Below are positions 50,538 through 63,172 of a stretch of 64,000 nt of DNA, piece after piece. The notes under the pieces were generated by a model. It did no database searches. It was given only the letters and a program-made list of their open reading frames with translations, and had not been told where the DNA came from. The stretch is from NCBI GenBank assembly GCA_964187785.1, contig OZ076415.1, positions 22,010,001 through 22,074,000 on the forward strand, written 5' to 3'. Every line of letters begins with the position of its first letter. The stretch's first letter is position 1. Source of the DNA: Amphiscolops sp. MND2022 (lineage: Eukaryota). Made by a program: the position numbers and the translations under genes.

Positions 50538-53500
50538 ATGCTCACTAAATTCGAGACAAAAACTGCTCGGGTGAAAGGTATGTGCTCGCTATTATTGTTA
50601 ACATGTTGCTTACACCTTGTTTGATGATTTTCATTTTTTTAGGTTTATCTTTCCACCCTAAACGACCATGGGTCTTGGCCAGTTTACACAGCGGTGTCGT
50701 CCAATTGTGGGACTTCAGAATGTGCACCTTGATTGACAAATTTGACGAACATGACGGTTGGTTTCTGTATTTCTCAAACTAAGCTCTTATAATTTTCAAA
50801 AATTGTTTCATGGCATAGCATAAGTTCAGGTAAATAATTGTTCACCAATTAGGTCCTGTGAGAGGAGTCAACTTTCACATGCAACAGCCGCTTTTTGTGT
50901 CTGGAGGTGATGATTACAAGATCAAGGTTTGGAATTACAAGCAAAAGCGCTGTTTGTTCACACTACTTGGCCATTTGGATTATATTCGAACAACATTCTT
51001 CCACCACGAATATCCCTGGATTCTTAGTTGCTCCGATGATCAGACGATTCGGATCTGGAACTGGCAGAGTCGGTCGTGCGTCAGGTATTTTTGTATTTAC
51101 TGATTTGCATATAATTTGCTTCCGTTGTTCTGCCATGATTTTTTCCCGTAAAGTAATATCGGATCATAAATGCTGCTTAAGGCGTTCTTAAGGGTAATTT
51201 TGTTCCAGTGTCTTGACTGGCCACAACCATTATGTGATGTGTGCAAATTTCCATCCAACCGAAGACTTAGTAGTTTCCGCTTCCTTGGATCAAACCGTAC
51301 GAGTTTGGGATATCTCTGGACTGCGCAAGAAAAACGTTTCCCCTGGTTCAGGGATGGGCATGGATTCCCATCGAAGTTCTGGTAATGCTGGATCGGTTGA
51401 CTTGTTTGGAAGCGCAGACGCCGTTGTCAAACATGTTCTCGAGGGTCATGATCGAGGGGTCAATTGGGTCTCGTTTCATCCAACTTTACCTCTGATCATC
51501 AGCGCAGCCGATGACAGGATGTGCAAAATCTGGCGTATGAATGACTCGAAGGCTTGGGAGGTCGATACTTGTAGAGGACATTACAACAATGTCTGCTGTG
51601 CCTTGTTCCATCCGATGCTTGAGACCATCATCACGTGCAGTGAAGACAAGTCGATCAGAATTTGGGATATGAACAAGCGGTAATTATTGTTTGCTTGTAG
51701 TAGCATTCTTTCTCAGAAATATTTACCAATGAATGATTTTGCAGAGTGCGATACAAACTGTTCTTAAGGTATCATGTTGTAGATTTTTCTGAATACGGCA
51801 ATTTCAAAAATACGATTAGGGAAGTGAAGGATACATTAATTTTTTTCATACTCTTCAAAATTATTCTTTGACAATTCGTATGATATTTCGATCACGTGAA
51901 ACTTTTCTTCTGAGTTTGCTCGTTATTGCGGCGTGAAATATCGAGCCGTGTGAAATGAAATTCTGTAGCTCCATCGTAATTTCATGATTGTTGTCCTTTT
52001 TAGAACATGCTTGCAGACGTTTAGAAGAGATCATGACAGGTTCTGGGTTGTGACTGCACACCCTACCCTCAACCTGTTCGCTGCCGGTCATGACGGAGGA
52101 ATGGTATGTTGCAAATTCTCTTCTTTCTGTTTGAGAAGTCATCTCTGACACCTTTTTATTGTTTTTTTTTCAATTACACTTCTGAAAAGTTAGTTTTCTT
52201 TCCGTTATTTTTAATTTTTGATCAAACGTATGCCGTATGATTTGTATCAGTTTTTGTGTTAACCTGAAGTCGAAACATTACTCGTCAACTTCTGTTGATT
52301 GCAGGTCGTGTTCAAACTGGAGCGAGAGAGGCCGGCGTTTGCTGTGTCGCACGCGGAAAACCAGCTGTTCTACGTGAAAGACAAGTACATCCGTATGCTC
52401 GACTTCAACACCAACAGAGACAACCCGGCTCTACAAATCAGAGCGTAAGACCAATCATACTTTTTACAACCGTGGAAAAGTTCCATTTTACGAATTATAC
52501 TTTGTTTTCGTCTAGAAGTGTTTCCTGATTTTTTAATCGGGTTCGTATTTCGTATTGGGGCAAAGGAAGGTCCTTTAGTATATGCAAAAGCAACTCGTGT
52601 CAAACAATTTCCTTGTTTCCAAACTTTGTGAAACATTTCCGACATGAGAGAAAGTCCAGTAGTTCTCATATAGTTGACATCCTGGAGTTGTTCGGAATGC
52701 CAGACTACAGGAAATTTCGTATTATTGCAATTTCAACCAAAACCAATCTTTACTAATTGGTCCCATATCGTTATAAAATTATTTTAGGCCGTTTTGATTC
52801 TACATTTATAAAATCAAATACGCTAACTTCTCTCGCTGCTGTAATATTTTACGCCAATTTTGACTTTTTCATGATTGAACCATAATTAAAGCTGTTTGGT
52901 TCATCGATAACTACTGATAACTCGGGTGAATTAGGAGCAATTAGCCAAAACTAATTTAGGTTGAAAGTGCAATAGGTTAAAAATGTGAGAAGTGTAAATG
53001 GCAAGAGTTCACCCAAGAAACTGCAATGGGTGGAAACTGAGATATATATGCCTAATCGGTGCTTTTTGCACATGACGAAGTCAATGTGCATTGCAGTCTA
53101 GCTAAAGAAGTTTTTTTCCACAATAGTCAACTTGATAATGAGCGCCTTTTAGAAAAGAGCCAAAACCCCAGAGAGATTCGAACCTGCAGCCTCCCGATTG
53201 CACGGCATAAGCGTTGACCACTGTGCCATAGGGACGTTATTGAACAAAGTTGAACTGTTGAATATATACGCATGCGATTGAATATATACGATTTATATAT
53301 ATATGAATTCGCCTCTGTGTTAATTATGCAATAAGTTCGCAAATTTTTCTCGGCGGCGAGTATTGTATTGATGAATCATTTCCAATCGGTGCTCCTGTGA
53401 AGAAACGTTGCATGAAGATATACGAAGGAATCCTTAATGATACTGTTGTCTCGGCTATTCTTTCGGCTTATTCTTCTGATTTCTTTTCGAATTGTCATGA

Positions 53501-56372
53501 GGTGAAGCTTTTTCCAATTACAAATGATTTTCTTTCCGATAACATTTTTGCCAAATAATAATAATAATAATAATTGAATTTATCTGGTGATACATAATTG
53601 ACATAAAAATATCAAATCAAGTTACGATAAAAATGCACCAGAAAAGACTCCCAAAGGGCTTACGCCCGCTGGAAGGGAGCCTTAGCGAATTAAAAACAAC
53701 GAAGTGTATGGTTAACATGATTAATCATACTGACTAAACCTATAGTCAAATGAGAAAATTCTAAGACGACAATGAAAAAAAAAACGAGACGGAAGAAAAG
53801 TATCGGAAAGAGAACGGAAAATTACCTTCAATACTTGACATTTGCTTCATCGGCAGTGGACGAGCTAAGCCGGCTCTTTTCTGTTCACCACCCCCCCCCC
53901 CACCACCAAAATTTTTGGAAGTAAATTTCCTTAAAAACTTTAGATACCCTAATTAAAAGTAAAACCTTCTTTCATAATGGGAAGATAACGTCTATTGGAA
54001 CGTCTAATGGATTAGTTTTTTGCTTGAACAAAACATTGTTCACGCTTTTTGACTATAATTATGTTCGCACTAAATGTTTATTGATGACTCAAAACAGGAA
54101 GCTGTTGAAGTCTTCATCAAAAATGCGTGACTACATATTGAAAAATGTGAACAAAGTTTGTATCTGAATCCTAAACGGTCACACTAAGAATAAATGTAAA
54201 TTTGAAGCTTTCTGATTTGTATTTAAATCTTTGTTATTAGATTTTCACTAGTTTTCCAAAAAAATTTTTGGTGGTGGGGGGGGGGAAACAGAAAAGAGCC
54301 GCTAAGCCCTAGTATCTAAAGCGATTCAACTCCCAACCAACTAAAACGTACAGAGTTATTTCGGGAAAAACGTCAAAAAAAGGTGAAAAAATCCGAACTC
54401 AGAGCGACTTAATACATCATTTTGGTGAAATTATAATATACTTTATCAAAAATTTGTCAGTGTGCAGCGTGAAAATTGTTCCATTGTGAAGACCAAATAA
54501 AATTGAAAAAAATTTTGTGGCAATGCTGATGTTCAAATACGCGGAGCACGTCACGGCATGGAAATATTAGTCATTTCACGATTTTTTGTGGCGCGAATCG
54601 TCACAAAGGACATTCGCACTGCAGTCGGATTTTACTGCATATTGTACAGTCGTGTGATGAAAGAATTGAACCTCTTTGTGACAAAAATGCATAAAACTCC
54701 CTTAATTTTTCCGAATTTTAAGGAAGATTTCGAATTTCTACGAAAGAGGCCAGAAGGAATGTTTCGGATTTTTGTCTTATTAGCAATCCTCTCAAAGTTT
54801 TACCATAAGAAAGTTTGCAAATATTTTTCTCATGTTTCTTACTGGAAATTTTTCACTGCCTAAATTAAGAGCAGAAGCTAGTCATTATTTGCTCTTTGAT
54901 ATTCTTCAAGCTGACCATCATTGAAGAAATGTTCAAAAATCCTAATTCGTTGGGCTTCCCAACTTCGAAGTCATCAATAGTGGGTAATTTTTTGGAGAAT
55001 ATCAATTCGGAAAATGCATGTAGTTGAAAGCTTGATGCTGTCGATTGAAGAATTCAATTCTTTTAATCATGACAATTTGCCTGAGAATTCTTGAAGTGGT
55101 ATTTTCAGTCGCTTTCGCTCCGACCTAAAGTTTGGGGTTCGCCAAAACCATTCATGGTCAGACATTGTATTGTTTTCAATTGCTGTTGATTGTTTCTTGT
55201 TGTAATAGTTGTACGATCTGTTGCGCCTTTGCAATGTTGGGAAATTGAGTTGCCTTTATAAAAAAACTTGTATTAAAATTGGTATTGAAGAAATTGTGTG
55301 CACAAATGGTGCACTGTTCCGTGGAAAGTAAAGTACTATATACGTATTTTGCATTGGATTATTTAGTTAGTTAGATATGTAGCTCTTTTATCCATGAAGG
55401 CATGTCCTCTCTGGCGGAAGAAATTAAATACACATCGTAAAAAAGTTTAGTGGCTCCTCCACTCGTTATGAGGATAAGGAACGAAGATGAATTTCTAGTA
55501 ATTGAGTCACTGAAAAGTATTGAAAAATAGCCGCCCCCGGAATAAAAGCCGCACTGTTCTTCCTTGGACAAGAGCATGTTAAACATTCGATTCTACCCCA
55601 AAGTTGTTTGACATGTGTTTGTGTCTTTGCCACTCAGCGTTTGTGTTCAGCGAATGAAAACCGCCTTCTATTGGAAACCGAACTTGTGGAACGATCGCAA
55701 AATGGAAGCCGTGGCTTCTTTTTGGATAAATAGTTTAAGTGCCATATTCAATTTTGTTTCGTTACCAAAACGCTTCACTTCGTTCTTTTTATTTCAGGAG
55801 CAAGCATAACCCATTCAGCCTGGCGTACAATGCCTCGGAGCGGGCGTGTCTGATAGTGACAAGAATGAGCAACAACCTGGAGAACAGCATCTACGAGCTG
55901 TACCAGCTCCCTAAAGAGGTAGACTCTTCCAGCCAGCCCGATTCCAACGATGGCAAGAGATCAGCCGGAATAGCCGCTGTCTGGGTTGCCAGGAACAGAT
56001 TTGCAGTGCTCGATAAAAGCAACACGGTACTTGCATTGACGTTTGATTTGAGAAATTTGAAAAAGGTTTAAACGCTTGAAAGTCTTGATTTCAGTAAAGT
56101 TTCGCATTAAAGTTGATATATTCCAATTTGAATTTTTTTCGACATTGTTGAGTACAAACGTTGATTTTGATTTAACTTGATTTAGTTTTTACCCAATTAT
56201 TGGTGTTCCTTCCAAGCAATTTGAGCGCGAATCAATAAATGTAGGTAGTCTTTCTTTCTAGATCCATATCAAGAACTTGAAAAACGAGATCATGAAGAAA
56301 GTTAGTGTGCCCAATGTCACTGATATCTTCTACGCCGGAACTGGAATGCTTCTGCTGCGGGAATTGGATCAA
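50538..56372 (+). CDS. COPA: Coatomer subunit alpha, N-terminal WD40 region (partial; 8 coding exons)
   Basis: Exons 50538-50577, 50643-50756, 50853-51084, 51209-51679, 52004-52103, 52305-52444, 55798-56026, 56262-56372, all GT-AG and in frame: [31 protein letters not shown]...[10 protein letters not shown]...FRRDHDRFW...[10 protein letters not shown]...[13 protein letters not shown]...[12 protein letters not shown]. No further exon recognised before 64000. Confidence 0.97.
53166..53234 (-). mobile_element. tRNA-derived SINE head or tRNA pseudogene in COPA intron 6
   Basis: Minus strand has A box TGGCACAGTGG and B box GGTTCGAATC; cloverleaf stems pair poorly. Confidence 0.55.
53554..53700 (-). 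mobile_element. LINE/SINE 3' tail remnant ending in a (TTA)n/(AAT)n tract
   Basis: (AAT)7 at 53554-53574 next to a GC-rich stem-loop (CTCCC..GGGC-TTAC-GCCC..GGGAG). Confidence 0.4.
53872..54300. mobile_element. MITE, 429 bp, with terminal inverted repeats and an 8-bp TSD (GCTAAGCC)
   Basis: Left GGCTCTTTTCTGTT..C-run..ACCACCAAAATTTTTGGAA is mirrored at the right end; GCTAAGCC at 53864-53871 and 54301-54308. Confidence 0.88.
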
Positions 56373-57999
56373 GTAAGTTGTCTCGTTGTAGGTTGATTAT
56401 AAAATAATTCATGGTATGGTTGTTCCAGTGAGTTTGAAAGCAGGGTTGCAATCAATTCAAACCGCTATACGATTTTTGAAATATGCAAATCTAGGTAAAA
56501 CTGATTCGATTAGATGACGAAAAGCGAAGAAAACTTTTGCTACGAAATGAAAACTAATTTTCTTTTATCATACTAATTTTCTTTTATCATAACGTTTTTT
56601 TCCGCCCATATTTCATATAAATATTTAAATCAAACTGTTTTTTTACAAAATTTGCCAAGCATCAAATTTAAATTTAATTTTAAGGGTGTTACCCATAGAA
56701 TTCAACTTATGTAAATTTAGCTTCGTGCTTCGTGCGATATGTATTTGTGGAGAATTCTGGACTTTTTTAGTTGACCCCATGGACCCAAAAATGAGAAAAT
56801 TTACAAAAATTTCCTATTTTTACGTTTTAGTAATTTTTCGATAGATATCGTGAATTAGATTGTTGAAAACGTTCAACAAGGCACGAACTCGTTGTCCAGT
56901 AGTCTTCTATTCAGAGATAATTGCTGTTTTTAATATTTCTGCTTTAGCAGGAATGTTATTGAAATCTGAAAGTGTCTACTTTTTTCAGTACAATTTTTGG
57001 GACGATACTGAATAATTCAGATATTTTGTTCGGCAGTGACTATAAGCGTAAGAATTTAATTTCTCAAGCTGCCGACGACAATTCAATTCTCGTGCGATGG
57101 AACGAGCGAGTGGTAATTATGCATTCGTATGCTGACGTCATTGAGATGAAGCGAATGAGTGTTAATCATTCGTTCGTTGAGAGCTTTGCCTGCATTCCAA
57201 TGCGAATGGGAAACTTCGTCTGCGCTTAGTAGTTATATTTTCTCAGTCCGAGAAGAATTAAAAGTGGTGTAAACTTGTACAGTGATTAATTGTGACTAAA
57301 TAATGATTAAACAGGAGTGTGTTTGTATTCCAGATATGATTCTATTATTAATGAAAGATTAAAGCAGAAATAGTACTGAGCCCCGGAGGGGCCTATTTTT
57401 TGAGATTGGAAAACTTCGGTGAGATGAAAGCTTCCAAGAGCTCTAGATGATAAACCTAGCGATGGGAGCTTTCCATGAACCACTAGTAGAGTGTTGAAGT
57501 AGATTGTGATTTTGTATAGGTGTTCAATCTGTGTAAGGATCAATTCTAAATGTTCTGTATGATTAATGTCCATTGTAACGTGACTTTTACAATCCAAACG
57601 CCTTAACATAATTCGTGGTAATAAATTACGGACGTTACAATTGGGTAAGTGTTGAGTTTGACAAAAATGTCAACGTTGTGGATGGAGAAATATGTAGAAA
57701 AAGTATTATGATGGAAAGAACATGAGTAAAAGAGGGTTTGTATGTAAAGTAGACTGGACAAGAAAAATGTAGCGTTGGTATTAATTGGATACATGTGAAA
57801 TATTTTAATTTCAGGGCCAATGTGTTTATGAGGAATTTATTTATTGAAATAACAGTCAATATAAAAATGTTTACCAGATAGACCTAATTAGGTAGCGTTT
57901 AGAAATAAATTAAAAATAAGAAACCAAAATGTAAGGAAGTTTATTGTTAGTTAATAAAATTCAGTGACAATCATGTAGTGGTGAAAAAAATGAATGTGG

Positions 58000-58753
58000 G
58001 GAAATTTAGTTTGAAGCCAAAACGGAGTGCAAATTATACATATAGATCTCATTACCAGTCATGATATGAAAGAAACCATTGCAGTACATGTTAATTAGCA
58101 CATCATTTAACATGGAGCACAAGATCACTAAACTTCATTTGAATTATCACACATTGTAAACAAATGGAAATGCTAACAAAAACACATTTATGTAACAATT
58201 TTACCCTTTCAAAATAGATTTAAAGCCGACACAATGAAAATTTCGGCTGCTATTCACAAGTCCGAAAATAAATTTGAGTTGCACAAGTCCGAAAATAAAT
58301 TTGGGTTGCACAAGTCCGAAAATAAATTTGGGTTGCACAAGTCCGAAAAAGTGCTTCATATTTGTTGTATGGCTCGGAAATTTAGTTTGAAGCCAAAACG
58401 GAGTGCAAATTATACATATAGATCTCATTACCAGTCATGATATGAAAGAAACCATTGCAGTACATGTTAATTAGCACATCATTTAACATGGAGCACAAGA
58501 TCACTAAACTTCATTTGAATTATCACACATTGTAAACAAATGGAAATGCTAACAAAAACACATTTATGTAACAATTTTACCCTTTCAAAATAGAATTAAA
58601 GCCGACACAATGAAAATTTCGGCGGCTATTCACAAGTCCGAAAATAAATTTGGGTTGCACAAGTCCGAAAATAAATTTGGGTTGCACAAGTCCGAAAATA
58701 AATTTGGGTTGCACAAGTCCGAAAAAGTGCTTCATATTTGTTGTATGGCTCGG
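58000..58753. repeat. 376-bp tandem duplication, each unit with 3+ copies of a 27-bp minisatellite (CACAAGTCCGAAAATAAATTTGGGTTG)
   Basis: Units start at 58000 and 58376 (GGAAATTTAGTTTGAAGCC); nearly identical. Confidence 0.93.
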
Positions 58754-59982
58754 TCGCTTCGCTCCCTTCGCCAAGTAGCAACATTGAGGCATGGCCATAT
58801 GGCACGTCGCTCCGCTTCGCTTCGCTCCTGCATTCAGGGCACTAGGAGTATGTGAACATAGCTGACTAGGAGAAATTGAAAAATTCATTTTAAAAATCTT
58901 TGAACGGACTTCGTTCCGGTCCGCCCGCGTCAACCAATCAGATTGCAGAGAATTATACAGTGCTAAGTATTTCTTATGCTGGATATCTGAAATCTTATTG
59001 GACGATAAAAATTTAATTTTATTCTTTCGGACTTGTGACCCGACACCAAAATTTCCATGAAATTTTGAAAACCGTTGTATTCAGCATTCGTGATTGCTAC
59101 AATGTATTGTCTCGGCCAGAATTGTTGTAGTTAAATGTAAGACATAATGGAATTGTTTTAAAGTACATACCATGTAGATTGTTTGTATGGGGTTATAAAT
59201 ACCACAGGAATTGATCAATGTAATTAAATTACCACGAACACATGACTCAAAACGTTGAATAAGAAATGAATGGACTATGGTGTTATAGACATGGTAATGT
59301 AAGGTAAAGAAATCTGTACTACGCATTCAACTAAAAAGTACAATTACACCTTCATGATTATAAAAAAAGCATAATATATGAAATGTTAGTGTAACATTAC
59401 AAACAAAGTACCCGTGATACATTTTGTTAATCATTTGCTAATTCACGTACCTAAAGTGTCTAAATGAAGTAACCTGGATGCATGAAGCAGAATATGGATA
59501 AAAATCATTTGCTGCATTACAATGAGAAGCAATTGGCCACTGAGCAATAAAAGATACGGGATTAAATTGTTACAAAAGGTTATATCATTGGAAACCAGCA
59601 ACACAGGATTTTTATGTTGGGATTGGAAAATGAAAGCAAATAGAAATTCAAAAAGTTTCCTGAGCAATCAAACGTACAACAAACCTCCTAGGTAGAGCCA
59701 GCGTGACCCACCTCGGACATTAAATACTGAACGATAAATGATTGGGAAAATGGTTTAGGGAATAGTTATATATTGGCAGTATCTGGACTACCGTAAATCA
59801 TCAAAGCATCATCTGTTGTTGCTCATTGAGGGGCGCTACAGGAATTATTGCTGATAAGTGGTAGGCAAAATTGCCATTCGTGCCACGCTTTTCGTCGATA
59901 GCGGGAGTAGTTGGTTATTATATCCTACTAACAAATCGATGGGGGGGGGTCAGGCAAAATAAAATTTCTACCAAAGACTCTG

Positions 59983-60054
59983 AGTCCCTCCCGGGACTCG
60001 AACCTCGCCGGTTGAGTTAATGGGCCAGCGACCTAACCACTATGCCACGAGACC
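59983..60054 (-). mobile_element. tRNA-derived SINE head or tRNA pseudogene
   Basis: GGTCTCGTGGCATAGTGGTTAGG...GGTTCGAGTCC; acceptor stem partly pairs, anticodon and T stems do not. Confidence 0.55.
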
Positions 60055-60141
60055 ATCTCAACGAGTCCATAAGGGTTCTTCGAACAACGATCATTCATTC
60101 TTTTCCTAAAAGTTATCTGAGACGGTTGGCCCTATAGTAAC

Positions 60142-60411
60142 ATGAACAGGACTCAATTGATTTGGGTAGTGATTTTGACCTTCACGTTTATTGTTGCAAT
60201 TCTTACAACTTCAATATTATTAATTACTAATTCTCAAAACGAAACGACCAATAACAGTGGGAACAATACAGACTCTTGTTCAGAAGAATTTACAGGTTAT
60301 TGCATGAATGGTGGTTACTGCTATTACCTAGAAGAGCAACAAACAGTCGCGTGTGAATGTCCGGAACTTTATGGTGGAAAAAGGTGTGGAAAGTTTTTAT
60401 GGTTTACTTGA
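60142..60411 (+). CDS. Intronless EGF-family ligand with N-terminal membrane anchor or signal
   Basis: Hydrophobic residues ~6-29, N-x-S/T sequons in the spacer, then six-cysteine EGF module CSEEFTGYCMNGGYCYYLEEQQTVACECPELYGGKRC. Confidence 0.85.
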   Translation: MNRTQLIWVVILTFTFIVAILTTSILLITNSQNETTNNSGNNTDSCSEEFTGYCMNGGYCYYLEEQQTVACECPELYGGKRCGKFLWFT

Positions 60412-61153
60412 AAATGCACGTGGAAAACGTTTAAATCAAATGTTCAATTGAACATTTAAAAAGACTCGAAGAACAACGCTCACTCTCAGCAAAAATTTAT
60501 ACAAGAGATGAAAGATTAATATTTCGTAACTACGTTTTGGCATTATGTCACGAAATGGCACCTTCAGGCAAAATTACCCAGCTCCAACCAAAGATTATCA
60601 TACCACGGATCAATCAAGTCTACAAAAAGTCAAAAGTTTACAGGCTAGCCATGGTTATCCACGAATCTACTCGATTGATTGCTGAAAATTATGAACGAGT
60701 CTGGGCAGGTCGCGCTATCGAAGATTGTCTTCACAGCTATCATCATGTAAGCAGAATCCAATGTTTCCTCTTGGCTTTGAAATTTAAACAATCATTTGTT
60801 GATGAATTCAGTTACCTCAGATGTTAACTTCATTTTGTATTAACCGTTTTGGAAAAAATAGTTGGCAATGACACTTCTTATCCTGGACCGTTTCTGGAAT
60901 TCCTCAAACATCGAAACTACTCTGGTCAAAATACCTTTAGTTTTGAATTCAGAGAAGAAACAGGAAGCATTTTGCCTTTATTATAACAACAGCTTGCTCC
61001 AATTGCTGGTTGTCTTGATTATCCTCAAATATCTCTTTTCAGCATTCATGCAAAGGCGACAGTATTAATTCTTACTGGTTACCGCCAAATTGTATTAGAC
61101 CATTGAAGAATCAATCATTCTGCCATAAAACGTCTCGCTGATCACTCGCTCAA

Positions 61154-61759
61154 ATGTTAAACTCTGATTTCTTAGTTATATATTTTGAAGGTTTCCGTCA
61201 CAAATCTCAACAATTTATACCCAAAGAGATTTCTGTTAGAGGCGCCAACTATCAAGACACTATTCTTTTGCAACCGCCGGTGAAATTTTCTCTATTAGCA
61301 GAAGAAAATGAAAAGACTTACGCCTGGTTAACAGAGAACCTACACGGCATTGTTTGGGAGGCTGGGAATTACGATCACACATTCATTTTCAATTTCTTCA
61401 ACGCGCTCAAACTTAGATTTCCAAACAGTACCGTTTTTTCAAAAGGTACCGAGAAGTGCACTTTCTTGAGAAATTTCTTCTTCAGTGTGGTCGACTTGGA
61501 CACTCTTGGTTGCCCCAAAGCATCTCAGTTTAGCTATTGTTCAACAAAAGTTTGTCCGAATCATCAAAAGTCTTACAAACTGAATCACTGTGCTCGAGAA
61601 AAAGTGACATTATTCTACAACTGGTTGTTCAATTACTTTCAAAATTCCCATCATGAATGCAGTCGATGCAACAGCCAAAGAGCACAACATACAGCTATCC
61701 CTATCCCCGAATTTGAGCCTCTCAGTTACAACAACCTTGGAGGTAACACGTGGCGCTGA
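61154..61759 (+). CDS. DEDD/DnaQ-like exonuclease-fold protein typical of Polintons
   Basis: VIYFEGFR..FIPKEISV, WLTENLHGIVWEAG, KGTEK, DLDTLGCPK, C..H....HCA..KV; the first catalytic Asp position appears to be Tyr. Confidence 0.65.
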   Translation: MLNSDFLVIYFEGFRHKSQQFIPKEISVRGANYQDTILLQPPVKFSLLAEENEKTYAWLTENLHGIVWEAGNYDHTFIFNFFNALKLRFPNSTVFSKGTEKCTFLRNFFFSVVDLDTLGCPKASQFSYCSTKVCPNHQKSYKLNHCAREKVTLFYNWLFNYFQNSHHECSRCNSQRAQHTAIPIPEFEPLSYNNLGGNTWR

Positions 61760-62177
61760 AGCCAAAATAAAATTAGTCAAAGATGAATTCAAGCAGGTTG
61801 GCAGTCACAAACTTTTGAGAAAGGGTGTTATACAGTTGACTGCATCCGAGTATTCGCAATTGAAGACTAGTTTCGAAACCATTGACAGTTTCATTACTTT
61901 TGTAAACCAAAATGCCAAGCAAACGACTACAGCATCTGATGGAGGCCCACAATATCAAACCGCTCAAGCTACCACCAAAGTATTCTCGTCCCATCAAACT
62001 TACGGCATCAAAGATCCAAAGTTACCGCGACAAATTTCAGAGGAATTGGCCGAGCGCAACGATGTGTTGGAGGTTGCCTACTTTCCACCAGCACAAACAA
62101 AAGTCAAGGGCGAGTACCGAATAAAACTCAAGTCTAGTGATGAATTTAACATTTTCATATTTTATACTGCTACATAA
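61653..62177 (+). CDS. PC4-like ssDNA-binding domain protein
   Basis: LRKGVIQLTASEYSQLK resembles the PC4 KKGISLT.EQW..LK motif; overlaps the upstream ORF. Confidence 0.5.
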   Translation: MNAVDATAKEHNIQLSLSPNLSLSVTTTLEVTRGAEAKIKLVKDEFKQVGSHKLLRKGVIQLTASEYSQLKTSFETIDSFITFVNQNAKQTTTASDGGPQYQTAQATTKVFSSHQTYGIKDPKLPRQISEELAERNDVLEVAYFPPAQTKVKGEYRIKLKSSDEFNIFIFYTAT

Positions 62178-62186
62178 TAGTCGTGT

Positions 62187-62501
62187 TTGTTATCAATTCA
62201 TTTTTCACAATCAAGAAAATTTTCAAGTATGACTGAGGTAGTTATCACTGAAGATGATGGCATAGGCAGTATGGAATCAAACGAAGAAGAAAGCGTAAGG
62301 TCATTGTGGAAGTTTTGCAATTCAATCACTTTACCAAGATCAGAGGTTGTCTTTTTTACTCAGGCAACACTATTTTTCATTCTTGTAATTGCTAGTTTGT
62401 TGAAACTTATTCTAGACAGACCGCCGTGCGAAGAAATGTCAGTGTGGTTTTCACTATTATTTGGAGCAGTTGGTTACACTCTACCTAATCCTAAACTATG
62501 A
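62187..62501 (+). CDS. Small two-helix membrane protein of Polinton type
   Basis: EVVFFTQ..FFILVIASL...WFSLLFGAVGYTLPNP; its stop overlaps the ATPase start (ATGA). The true start may be the ATG near 62230. Confidence 0.6.
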   Translation: MLSIHFSQSRKFSSMTEVVITEDDGIGSMESNEEESVRSLWKFCNSITLPRSEVVFFTQATLFFILVIASLLKLILDRPPCEEMSVWFSLLFGAVGYTLPNPKL

Positions 62502-63172
62502 ACAAGATCATTTTCACCAATGATCGTTTATTCTTGGCTCTGGTTGGTCCTGGGGGCTCGGGTAAAACTGGTCTCATTTATTCGATGCTTGCCTCGCCTG
62601 CAACATTTTATCCACCCATTGAAAAAACTTTTTACTTTTACAAGGAATATCAACCGCTTTTCCAAGAAATGTCTGAAAGATTAAACATTGAATTTATTCC
62701 ATGTTTGGACTTTGAAATGATCAAAAACTTGGAAAATTGTTTGTTAGTTTTCGACGATTCATGTGAGGAGATTCACCAAGAACAAGCGTTTGTCAAACTT
62801 GCAGTTGCCGGTAGACACAGAAAACTCTATTGCATTTTCGTCAAACACAACTTATTCCATCAAAGCAAGTGGTCGCGTACAATTGATTTAAACACAACAC
62901 ATGTCATTTTATTCAAATCACCGCGAGACCTGCAGCAAATTGACCATTTCGGTAGACAATTGAAACAATTAGATTTTATTCGAGAAGCTTATCAGAGGGC
63001 CACCACGAGGCCATTCGGACATCTACTTATTGATTTCGATCCGAAAACAAGCGACGTCTTACGTTTTTGCTCAAATATTGTTGCTCCTCAACCGACTACC
63101 TTCTATATTCCATCATCGACTGCAAAGGAAACGCTTCTAACAAATGAGCGAGAAAAAAATTGCATATACTGA
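62498..63172 (+). CDS. A32/FtsK-HerA-family DNA packaging ATPase
   Basis: Walker A GPGGSGKT, Walker B LLVFDD, GRH arginine-finger motif, HNLFHQSKWSRTIDLNTTHVILFKSPRD. Confidence 0.9.
   Translation: MNKIIFTNDRLFLALVGPGGSGKTGLIYSMLASPATFYPPIEKTFYFYKEYQPLFQEMSERLNIEFIPCLDFEMIKNLENCLLVFDDSCEEIHQEQAFVKLAVAGRHRKLYCIFVKHNLFHQSKWSRTIDLNTTHVILFKSPRDLQQIDHFGRQLKQLDFIREAYQRATTRPFGHLLIDFDPKTSDVLRFCSNIVAPQPTTFYIPSSTAKETLLTNEREKNCIY

Follow-up and report, generated by a model that had tools for sequence, protein, structure and literature searches.

An intronless EGF-ligand gene, likely copied from a host EGFR-ligand mRNA, is conserved cargo of one Polinton clade in an acoel genome

We report that a small intronless gene for an EGF ligand in the genome of Amphiscolops sp. 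MND2022 is conserved cargo of one clade of Polintons. Comparison with host genes points to a likely and ancient origin as a copy of the mRNA of one EGFR-ligand gene of the host; we consider it highly probable that the gene is functional captured cargo. The stretch of DNA analysed here, referred to as the window, comprises 64,000 nucleotides (contig OZ076415.1, positions 22,010,001 to 22,074,000). An earlier, sequence-only reading of the window had proposed that a host growth-factor gene was captured by an endogenous polintovirus, and this proposal is now supported by a spliced counterpart on C5, by the absence of its intron from the element gene, and by the truncation of the element's protein.

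Results

The EGF gene and its protein

The positions of the gene, its parts and its neighbors are collected in Table 1.

Table 1. Features of the left end of the Polinton and its surroundings, in window coordinates.
Feature	Position	Strand	Remarks
Host COPA exons, residues 1-481	50538..56378	+	further exons from G000:C7:22121525
Left 6-bp target-site duplication, AGCGGG	59900..59905		twin beyond the right end, G000:C7:22086120-22086125, outside the window
Left terminal inverted repeat (TIR), about 107 bp, begins AGTAGT	59906..60012	+	from alignment; common start of DNA matches
tRNA-like element with Pol III A/B-box-like motifs	59982..60053	-	points outward, overlaps the TIR; called by ARAGORN at lowered threshold only
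Intronless EGF-ligand gene, 89 aa	60142..60411	+	hydrophobic segment, glycosylatable stalk, EGF module, 7-residue tail
Hydrophobic segment, residues 6-29	60157..60228	+	hydropathy; AlphaFold2 helix; signal anchor or cleaved signal peptide
EGF module, C46-C82	60277..60387	+	ErbB-ligand spacing; Y53, Y77, G79, R81
Second gene, 137 aa in sister copies	60414..60827	+	early stop interrupts the window copy; dN/dS 0.22
Gene common to all five EGF-bearing families	61154..61759	+	undetected in 20 sampled sister-clade loci
Gene common to families A, C and D	61653..62177	+	from comparison across families
Small hydrophobic gene common to families A-D	62229..62501	+	from comparison across families
A32-like packaging ATPase	62498..63172	+	Pfam Pox_A32 E 5e-4, under the curated cut-off; Walker A motif

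The reading frame that the sequence-only reading had called intact does translate into 89 amino acids followed by a stop codon (window 60142-60411, plus strand). Residues 6-29 contain no charged residues and no N, Q or H and have a mean Kyte-Doolittle hydropathy of 2.5, in keeping with the hydrophobic stretch described there, and the stalk holds three N-glycosylation sequons. The cysteines are arranged as C46-x7-C54-x5-C60-x10-C71-x-C73-x8-C82, with seven residues thereafter. As had been claimed, this is one canonical six-cysteine EGF module: the protein scores 25.2 bits against the Pfam EGF model (cut-off 21.5), and 22 of its 23 matches in a sequence search of the PDB (best E 9e-7) are ErbB ligands or ErbB-ligand chimeras, the remaining match being an EGF-like ant venom peptide. 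The single module, the six-cysteine spacing and the arginine before Cys6 are those of ErbB/EGFR ligands. A Notch-type EGF repeat was considered as the identity of the module and rejected. Position +5 past Cys6, which we take to correspond to the receptor-binding leucine of EGF, is a tryptophan in the element protein and in the host ligand alike. The protein ends 7 residues past Cys6 and so lacks the type I precursor arrangement, in which the EGF module lies directly N-terminal to a membrane segment; likewise, the intronless element gene lacks the Cys4-Cys5 splice site that the accessible text of PMC1618406 gives as a criterion for ErbB ligands.

The AlphaFold2 model of the protein (pLDDT 72) consists of a helix at residues 3-31 and an EGF hairpin. 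Structure searches with this 89-aa model gave no match at E <= 0.001; the top ranks among PDB structures are held by the ErbB ligands EGF, epiregulin and neuregulin, all of them above that threshold. In a viral structure library, poxvirus growth factors are three of the five top matches, at a weak E of 0.2-0.7, and a search of the ESM Atlas returned only vertebrate EGF/epigen clusters, with scores of 0.84 or less that have the standing of leads.

The hydrophobic runs at the N-termini of element-type EGF proteins are 17-26 residues long, and the net charge on their N-side equals or exceeds that on their C-side in 16 of 18 proteins. The cleavable-looking signal of the host ligand has a hydrophobic run of similar length. 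In the family A protein, the -3/-1 rule for signal cleavage points to a plausible cleavage site after residue 31. Residues 6-29 may thus be a membrane anchor, as the sequence-only reading had it, or a cleaved signal peptide.

The Polinton and its insertion site

The carrier of the EGF gene is a bona fide Polinton. It is 16,214 bp long, with its left end at window position 59906 and its right end at G000:C7:22086119, and it is bounded by 107-bp TIRs (AGTAGT...ACTACT) with AGCGGG flanking both ends. The start codon of the EGF gene lies 236 bp inside the left end, so the placement of the ORF within the termini, implied by the sequence-only reading, holds. A location outside the Polinton termini is excluded by the TIR and the target duplication that flank the ORF. 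When window 59850-60560 was used as the query in a DNA search (40 scored of 542 candidates), 38 of the 39 long non-self matches began at query position 51-57, corresponding to window 59906, and the flanks beyond this terminus are unrelated between copies.

The element encodes an integrase (Pfam rve, E 1.3e-11), a protein-primed family B DNA polymerase (Pfam DNA_pol_B_2, E 1.3e-6) that is split into several pieces in the window copy, and a Pox_A32-type ATPase that is conserved across the EGF-bearing families. Its major capsid protein is predicted to be of the double-jelly-roll type, the best Foldseek matches of the capsid model (pLDDT 63.5) being the capsids of PBCV-1, an iridovirus, Sputnik and mavirus (E 3e-13 to 1e-10). 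Conserved ORFs that have no Pfam match occupy the positions expected for an adenain-like protease and a penton; we assign these labels presumptively, from position and a sequence motif. The window copy is decayed, with several genes broken. The second gene of Table 1 has an uninterrupted frame in 19 of 27 sister copies, which bears on the short co-oriented ORFs that the sequence-only reading had noted after the EGF gene: they are present, but they are mostly fragments of this one gene with its early stop and not separate ORFs. The co-oriented Polinton-type gene placed about 740 bp downstream is the conserved ORF at 61154, at a distance of 743 bp on the same strand.

The Polinton sits inside an intron of COPA, since the COPA exons stop at 56378 and resume at G000:C7:22121525. 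The nearest named relative of the COPA exon is that of the acoel Convolutriloba macropyga (91%), other named matches being at 80% or less, in keeping with an acoel host. In one published acoel genome, Mavericks account for 4.5% of the total, according to the accessible text of PMC6451197.

The same intron, which is roughly 55 kb long, holds a second EGF-bearing Polinton of the family C type with a 100-aa ligand, about 3.8 kb past the right end of the first (L032:5941-6243 to L033:3949; G000:C7:22089941 onward). The right arm of the first Polinton contains an ORF for a uS5-like ribosomal protein on the minus strand (L032:880-1341, G000:C7:22084880-22085341; Pfam Ribosomal_S5 E 1.7e-8, S5_C E 7.8e-7). 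Divergent homologues of this ORF (30-35%) occur in two family C copies (L112 and L115) and were undetected in the family D and B stretches examined; the ORF may represent a second case of capture. A tandemly repeated sequence (L032:1-400 and L031:9633-10000) separates the polymerase from this ORF in the same arm. Outward-pointing tRNA-like elements are found at both ends of the Polinton (window 59982-60053 on the minus strand, and L032 about 1980-2047 on the plus strand), with their 3' halves within the TIR. For the left one, ARAGORN makes no call at its default threshold, and there is no Rfam match; possible identities of these elements are small viral RNAs, insulators and parts of replication origins. 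About 1.2 kb to the left of the Polinton, window 58000-58752 contains a 376-bp-spaced duplication with 27-bp tandem units.

Copy number and selection

With 150 of 697 candidates scored, a protein search yielded at least 150 genomic copies of the family A EGF gene that are 85-100% identical, with internal stops in 4 of the 150. We examined 70 copies, namely the 30 best DNA matches and 40 that were hand-picked from the protein list. Among these, 67 are full-length with six cysteines, a share of intact ORFs that is inflated because the copies were chosen by best score, and 69 have a Polinton terminus 215-248 bp upstream of the gene. In agreement with the element-borne gene claimed earlier, the copies are found at unrelated sites, always at the end of an element.

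Pairwise Nei-Gojobori estimates give a dN/dS of 0.27 (bootstrap 0.11-0.52) for the 12 EGF sequences that are each present in two or more copies, and of 0.30 (0.17-0.49) for all 42 unique sequences. The values for the anchor, the stalk and the EGF module taken separately all fall within 0.24-0.37. By reading frame, the ratio is 0.32 in frame, 1.39 and 1.10 when the sense frame is shifted, and 3.2, 0.39 and 1.08 in the antisense frames; the low antisense value of 0.39 is expected because the third positions of that frame mirror the sense frame. These estimates indicate that the gene is under purifying selection with a dN/dS of about 0.3. Given this in-frame ratio and the presence of at least 150 copies, the ORF is not a product of chance.

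Other EGF-bearing families

Four further Polinton families (B-E) carry EGF homologues in their left arms. Their capsids are about 31-68% identical to that of family A, and their ATPases 45-77%. The EGF gene lies upstream of the ATPase, integrase and capsid genes at two family B loci, at all three C loci, at all three D loci and at two of three E loci, the third E locus having only its left end in common. Family B has at least 150 matches at 58-98% and family E has 68, and TIRs with a 6-bp duplication were found in both of the family C copies tested and in one of the two family D copies tested. The EGF modules share 20-26 of 44 residues between families and the N-termini of the proteins vary widely; the six cysteines and the tail are kept in all five families.

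In the ATPase tree (100/99) and in the integrase tree (100/100) the EGF-bearing families fall together on one side, both trees being unrooted and having family B as a long branch. When about 10 kb of flanking DNA in each direction was scanned with the EGF profile, none of 20 ATPase loci from the sister side, chosen by hand from 150 rows so as to span other families, gave a match; the left arms were covered where tested, and both ends lay within the DNA examined at 1 of the 20. Two features set family B apart as observed: a polymerase-like frame of 1,469 codons precedes the EGF gene and runs on the other strand, and one copy (L111/L100/L114, G000:C2:79.61-79.63 Mb) has inverted repeats of about 628 bp and a flanking direct repeat of 369 bp.

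A cluster-representative search returned 112 proteins, many of them short relatives with the same layout and tail, and some of these correspond to the further families of this genome. The 19 short relatives that were looked up are all ENA or Logan records, short contigs in which RNA and DNA are indistinguishable and which we excluded as evidence of expression. One of these proteins, P0082, has a best match of 38% in G000, and since it has no close match there, its family is likely present in another genome as well. Together with P0184-P0203 (ENA records), P0082 represents a family of this short EGF protein that has many copies, often degenerate ones. No free viral relatives were found in viral contig collections, and none from the environment in metagenome contigs, which were searched with one peptide pattern of low sensitivity.

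The host counterpart

The host EGFR-ligand gene (G000:C5:29806634-29819481) was located by way of P0053, a type I membrane protein of 237 aa that shares the tail motif. It encodes a type I membrane protein in six GT-AG exons, of which one holds the signal peptide, one the stalk with Cys1-Cys4, one Cys5-Cys6 with the tail, one the membrane segment, and two the cytoplasmic part. Both features by which ErbB-ligand precursors are recognized, the Cys4-Cys5 intron and the adjoining membrane segment (accessible text of PMC1618406), are thus present in the C5 gene. The element gene was correctly described as intronless, being complete from ATG to stop with its spliced host counterpart elsewhere, and these two facts also exclude its being a single exon of a spliced host gene.

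The EGF modules of family A and the C5 gene agree at 30-31 of 44 residues (68-70%), with four-fold sites identical at 1 of 9-10. Given high residue identity with silent sites saturated, the separation of family A from the host gene appears to be old and to have been under strong constraint. Family A remains the closest to the local host sequence. All 18 element-type EGFs with standard spacing score best to the C5 gene among three host paralogues, a preference that comes mainly through the Cys5-tail exon. In a comparison with 18 non-acoel-type EGF modules, the host gene was the higher-scoring match for 23 of 24. The best-kept part is the Tyr-Gly-Gly-x-Arg-Cys stretch with the tail, where 12-14 of 17 residues match the host ligand in families A-E, and the viral proteins end at the residue where the host protein runs on towards its membrane segment. 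The viral N-terminus has no clear match to the signal-peptide exon of the host. The family C alignment extends to residue 136, and a remnant of the host membrane segment may lie beyond the stop codon of family C. In a tree of EGF modules (47 columns), which is unrooted and unresolved, a viral-plus-host group (67/95) includes two long-branch intruders, and viral and host EGFs form a single clade in 2% of bootstrap trees; we therefore infer the direction of transfer from intron loss and truncation.

Two other host genes in which the EGF module is split between Cys4 and Cys5 (G000:C7:57174872, L173, and G000:C10:29281841, L177) are candidate EGFR-ligand paralogues. The splice-acceptor pattern gave 9 matches as against 13 for the control, a count at chance level, and 3 of the 9 were retained on the strength of a Cys1-Cys4 exon no more than 430 bp upstream. 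Between the host ligand and P0053, the EGF module agrees at 26 of 44 residues, the signal peptide at 85% and the cytoplasmic exons at 74-79%; this low conservation of the module is unusual and may reflect conflict where ligand meets receptor. At two host loci, EGFR-like L domains are followed on the same strand by matches to GF_recep_IV.

Discussion

We favor, with moderate confidence, a mechanism in which the captured EGF would act as an agonist growth-factor mimic on host EGFR. Capture would very probably have proceeded via the spliced mRNA of the host ligand gene, since the host's Cys4-Cys5 intron is absent from the viral gene, and the C-terminal membrane segment and cytoplasmic tail would then have been lost. 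The resulting protein ends 7 residues past Cys6 and resembles a shed ligand, so processing by a sheddase would not be needed. The N-terminal hydrophobic segment would export the EGF module, somewhat more probably as a tethered type II protein than as one secreted after cleavage, and the exported module would probably bind host EGFR. Whether agonism would then draw neoblasts to the cell in which the element is active, or keep them cycling near it, we regard as an even chance; the dividing cells so recruited would be hosts for replication and integration of the element. In Hofstenia, a ligand with one EGF module and a membrane segment is required, together with egfr-1, for neoblasts to gather at wounds, and loss of nrg-1 blocks the accumulation of neoblasts but not proliferation (accessible text of PMC13046036). 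Since proliferation is spared, recruitment is better supported than a mitogenic effect. Neoblasts are the only dividing cells in Isodiametra, for which an embryonic germ line is suggested (accessible text of PMC2806412), and this weakens the step from stem cell to germ line. We also put forward, more tentatively and at less than even confidence, that the gene is an ancient, clade-defining mimic, an acoel wound-signal ligand cut to its pre-shed form that would call the only dividing cells to the site of replication, and that host and viral ligands may co-evolve at the receptor.

Poxvirus growth factors act as agonists, and MGF and SFGF are short proteins with a hydrophobic start and a C-terminal EGF module, a layout resembling that of the Polinton protein. 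The Polinton EGF would work like these factors, vaccinia VGF, myxoma MGF and Shope fibroma SFGF, which are likewise virus-encoded ErbB-type ligands with a single EGF module, but it does not belong to their family. The carrier here is instead an integrating Polinton of an invertebrate that is inherited through the germ line, and the closest relative of its EGF is the ligand of the host itself, in the same genome. Descent from the poxvirus factors finds no support, the structure matches being non-significant and the closest relative being a host gene, and in the absence of specific kinship the capture looks independent of poxviruses. The poxvirus growth factors and their receptor preferences are listed in the accessible text of PMC1618406.

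The element shares TIRs, a 6-bp duplication, an integrase, pPolB, an A32-like ATPase and a double-jelly-roll capsid, and presumptively a protease, with the Polinton/Maverick elements for which the family Adintoviridae has been proposed (accessible text of PMC8502044). Adintovirus accessory genes described there include Rb-binding 'Oncoid' genes and homologues of Bcl2 and IAP, proliferation-related cargo that acts inside the cell, whereas the Polinton EGF would act between cells; the main text of that paper contains no occurrence of 'EGF' or 'growth factor'. The accessible part of a preprint on nematode Mavericks (bioRxiv 2022.07.12.499685) likewise contains no occurrence of EGF, and the cargo that it describes (wasp proteases, krma kinases and a fusogen) has retained introns and is variable, unlike the EGF gene, which is intronless, truncated and conserved across its clade. 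Nor does EGF occur in the accessible text of a 2026 preprint on small eukaryotic DNA viruses. In the literature searched we found no report of EGF cargo in Polintons; supplements to Polinton papers and Repbase-type entries could hold such an annotation. Among known acoel EGFR ligands (Hofstenia NRG-1, accessible text of PMC13046036; EGF-type, PMC4914847), the host counterpart on C5 has the same layout of one EGF module plus a membrane segment, while the viral form ends short of the C-terminal membrane segment and the tail. Single-EGF proteins without a membrane segment are counted as EGF-type candidates in PMC4914847.

Several other roles for the protein were weighed against agonism. It might bind EGFR as a decoy, partial agonist or down-regulator that blunts wound or clearance signalling or excludes superinfection. 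The protein has neither the membrane segment nor the tail of the host ligand, and its module has diverged to 20-26 of 44 residues between families, so that affinity and efficacy may differ; yet the Tyr-Gly-Gly-x-Arg-Cys stretch and tail are best kept, at 12-14 of 17 residues as in the host ligand, and the known poxvirus ligands bind ErbB receptors (accessible text of PMC1618406), and we hold a decoy to be rather improbable. Equally doubtful to us is an attachment or entry factor, displayed on the particle or the cell membrane, that would dock on stem cells via EGFR with signalling as a secondary matter. Long N-terminal hydrophobic runs, with N-side charge at or above C-side charge in 16 of 18 proteins, would suit a type II anchor with the EGF module outside, and nematode Mavericks have acquired a fusogen (accessible text of bioRxiv 2022.07.12.499685). 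However, no fusogen-like gene was recognized in the Polinton with Pfam, and the EGF gene lies at the left end, distant from the virion module. A benefit to the host, with integrated copies supplying extra EGF ligand in regeneration and no adaptation of the element, would fit the hundreds of copies with mostly open frames and the central place of EGFR signalling in acoel regeneration (accessible text of PMC13046036). We nonetheless consider it very unlikely: constraint is seen between young, still-amplifying subfamilies and spans families with capsids about 31% identical, which argues for selection during element replication rather than at one domesticated locus, and the window copy belongs to a decaying element.

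Neutral hitch-hiking, in which a recently captured host fragment is passively amplified, we regard as the least credible of these readings, to the point of being nearly negligible. Age alone would keep frames open in young copies, but a neutral passenger is contradicted by the dN/dS of about 0.3 with its interval below 1, by 68-70% amino-acid identity to the host despite saturated silent sites, by the comparison of frames, and by the retention of six cysteines and the tail in five families. A question of history that is compatible with the growth-factor-mimic mechanism is whether there were several independent captures or gene exchanges, with the family A EGF renewed from the host at a later date. 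The EGF of family A shares more residues with host EGF (30-31 of 44) than with the EGFs of the other families (22-26 of 44), its identity to the host exceeds that of host EGF to the putative orthologue P0053 (26 of 44), and the N-termini differ widely among families. Against this, all of the proteins stop 7 residues past Cys6 with the same tail, and the genes are confined to left arms and to a single clade, so we judge repeated capture to be somewhat unlikely, though a serious candidate. Any recapture by family A would be old, since silent sites between it and the host are saturated.

If the captured EGF is an agonist mimic, growth-factor mimicry is not confined to vertebrate poxviruses but extends to an element inherited by an early-branching bilaterian. 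Polintons stand midway between transposons and viruses, and in most animal lineages they may or may not have an infectious, cell-to-cell phase. A gene whose product must act extracellularly, and which selection has kept in deeply diverged families, points indirectly to a stage at which manipulation of neighboring cells is of advantage. One genome holds the likely donor, its paralogues and the receptors, and among the copies of the element there are naturally occurring variants of the ligand to compare at one receptor. Since RNAi phenotypes of acoel EGFR signalling are on record (accessible text of PMC13046036), the idea is directly testable.
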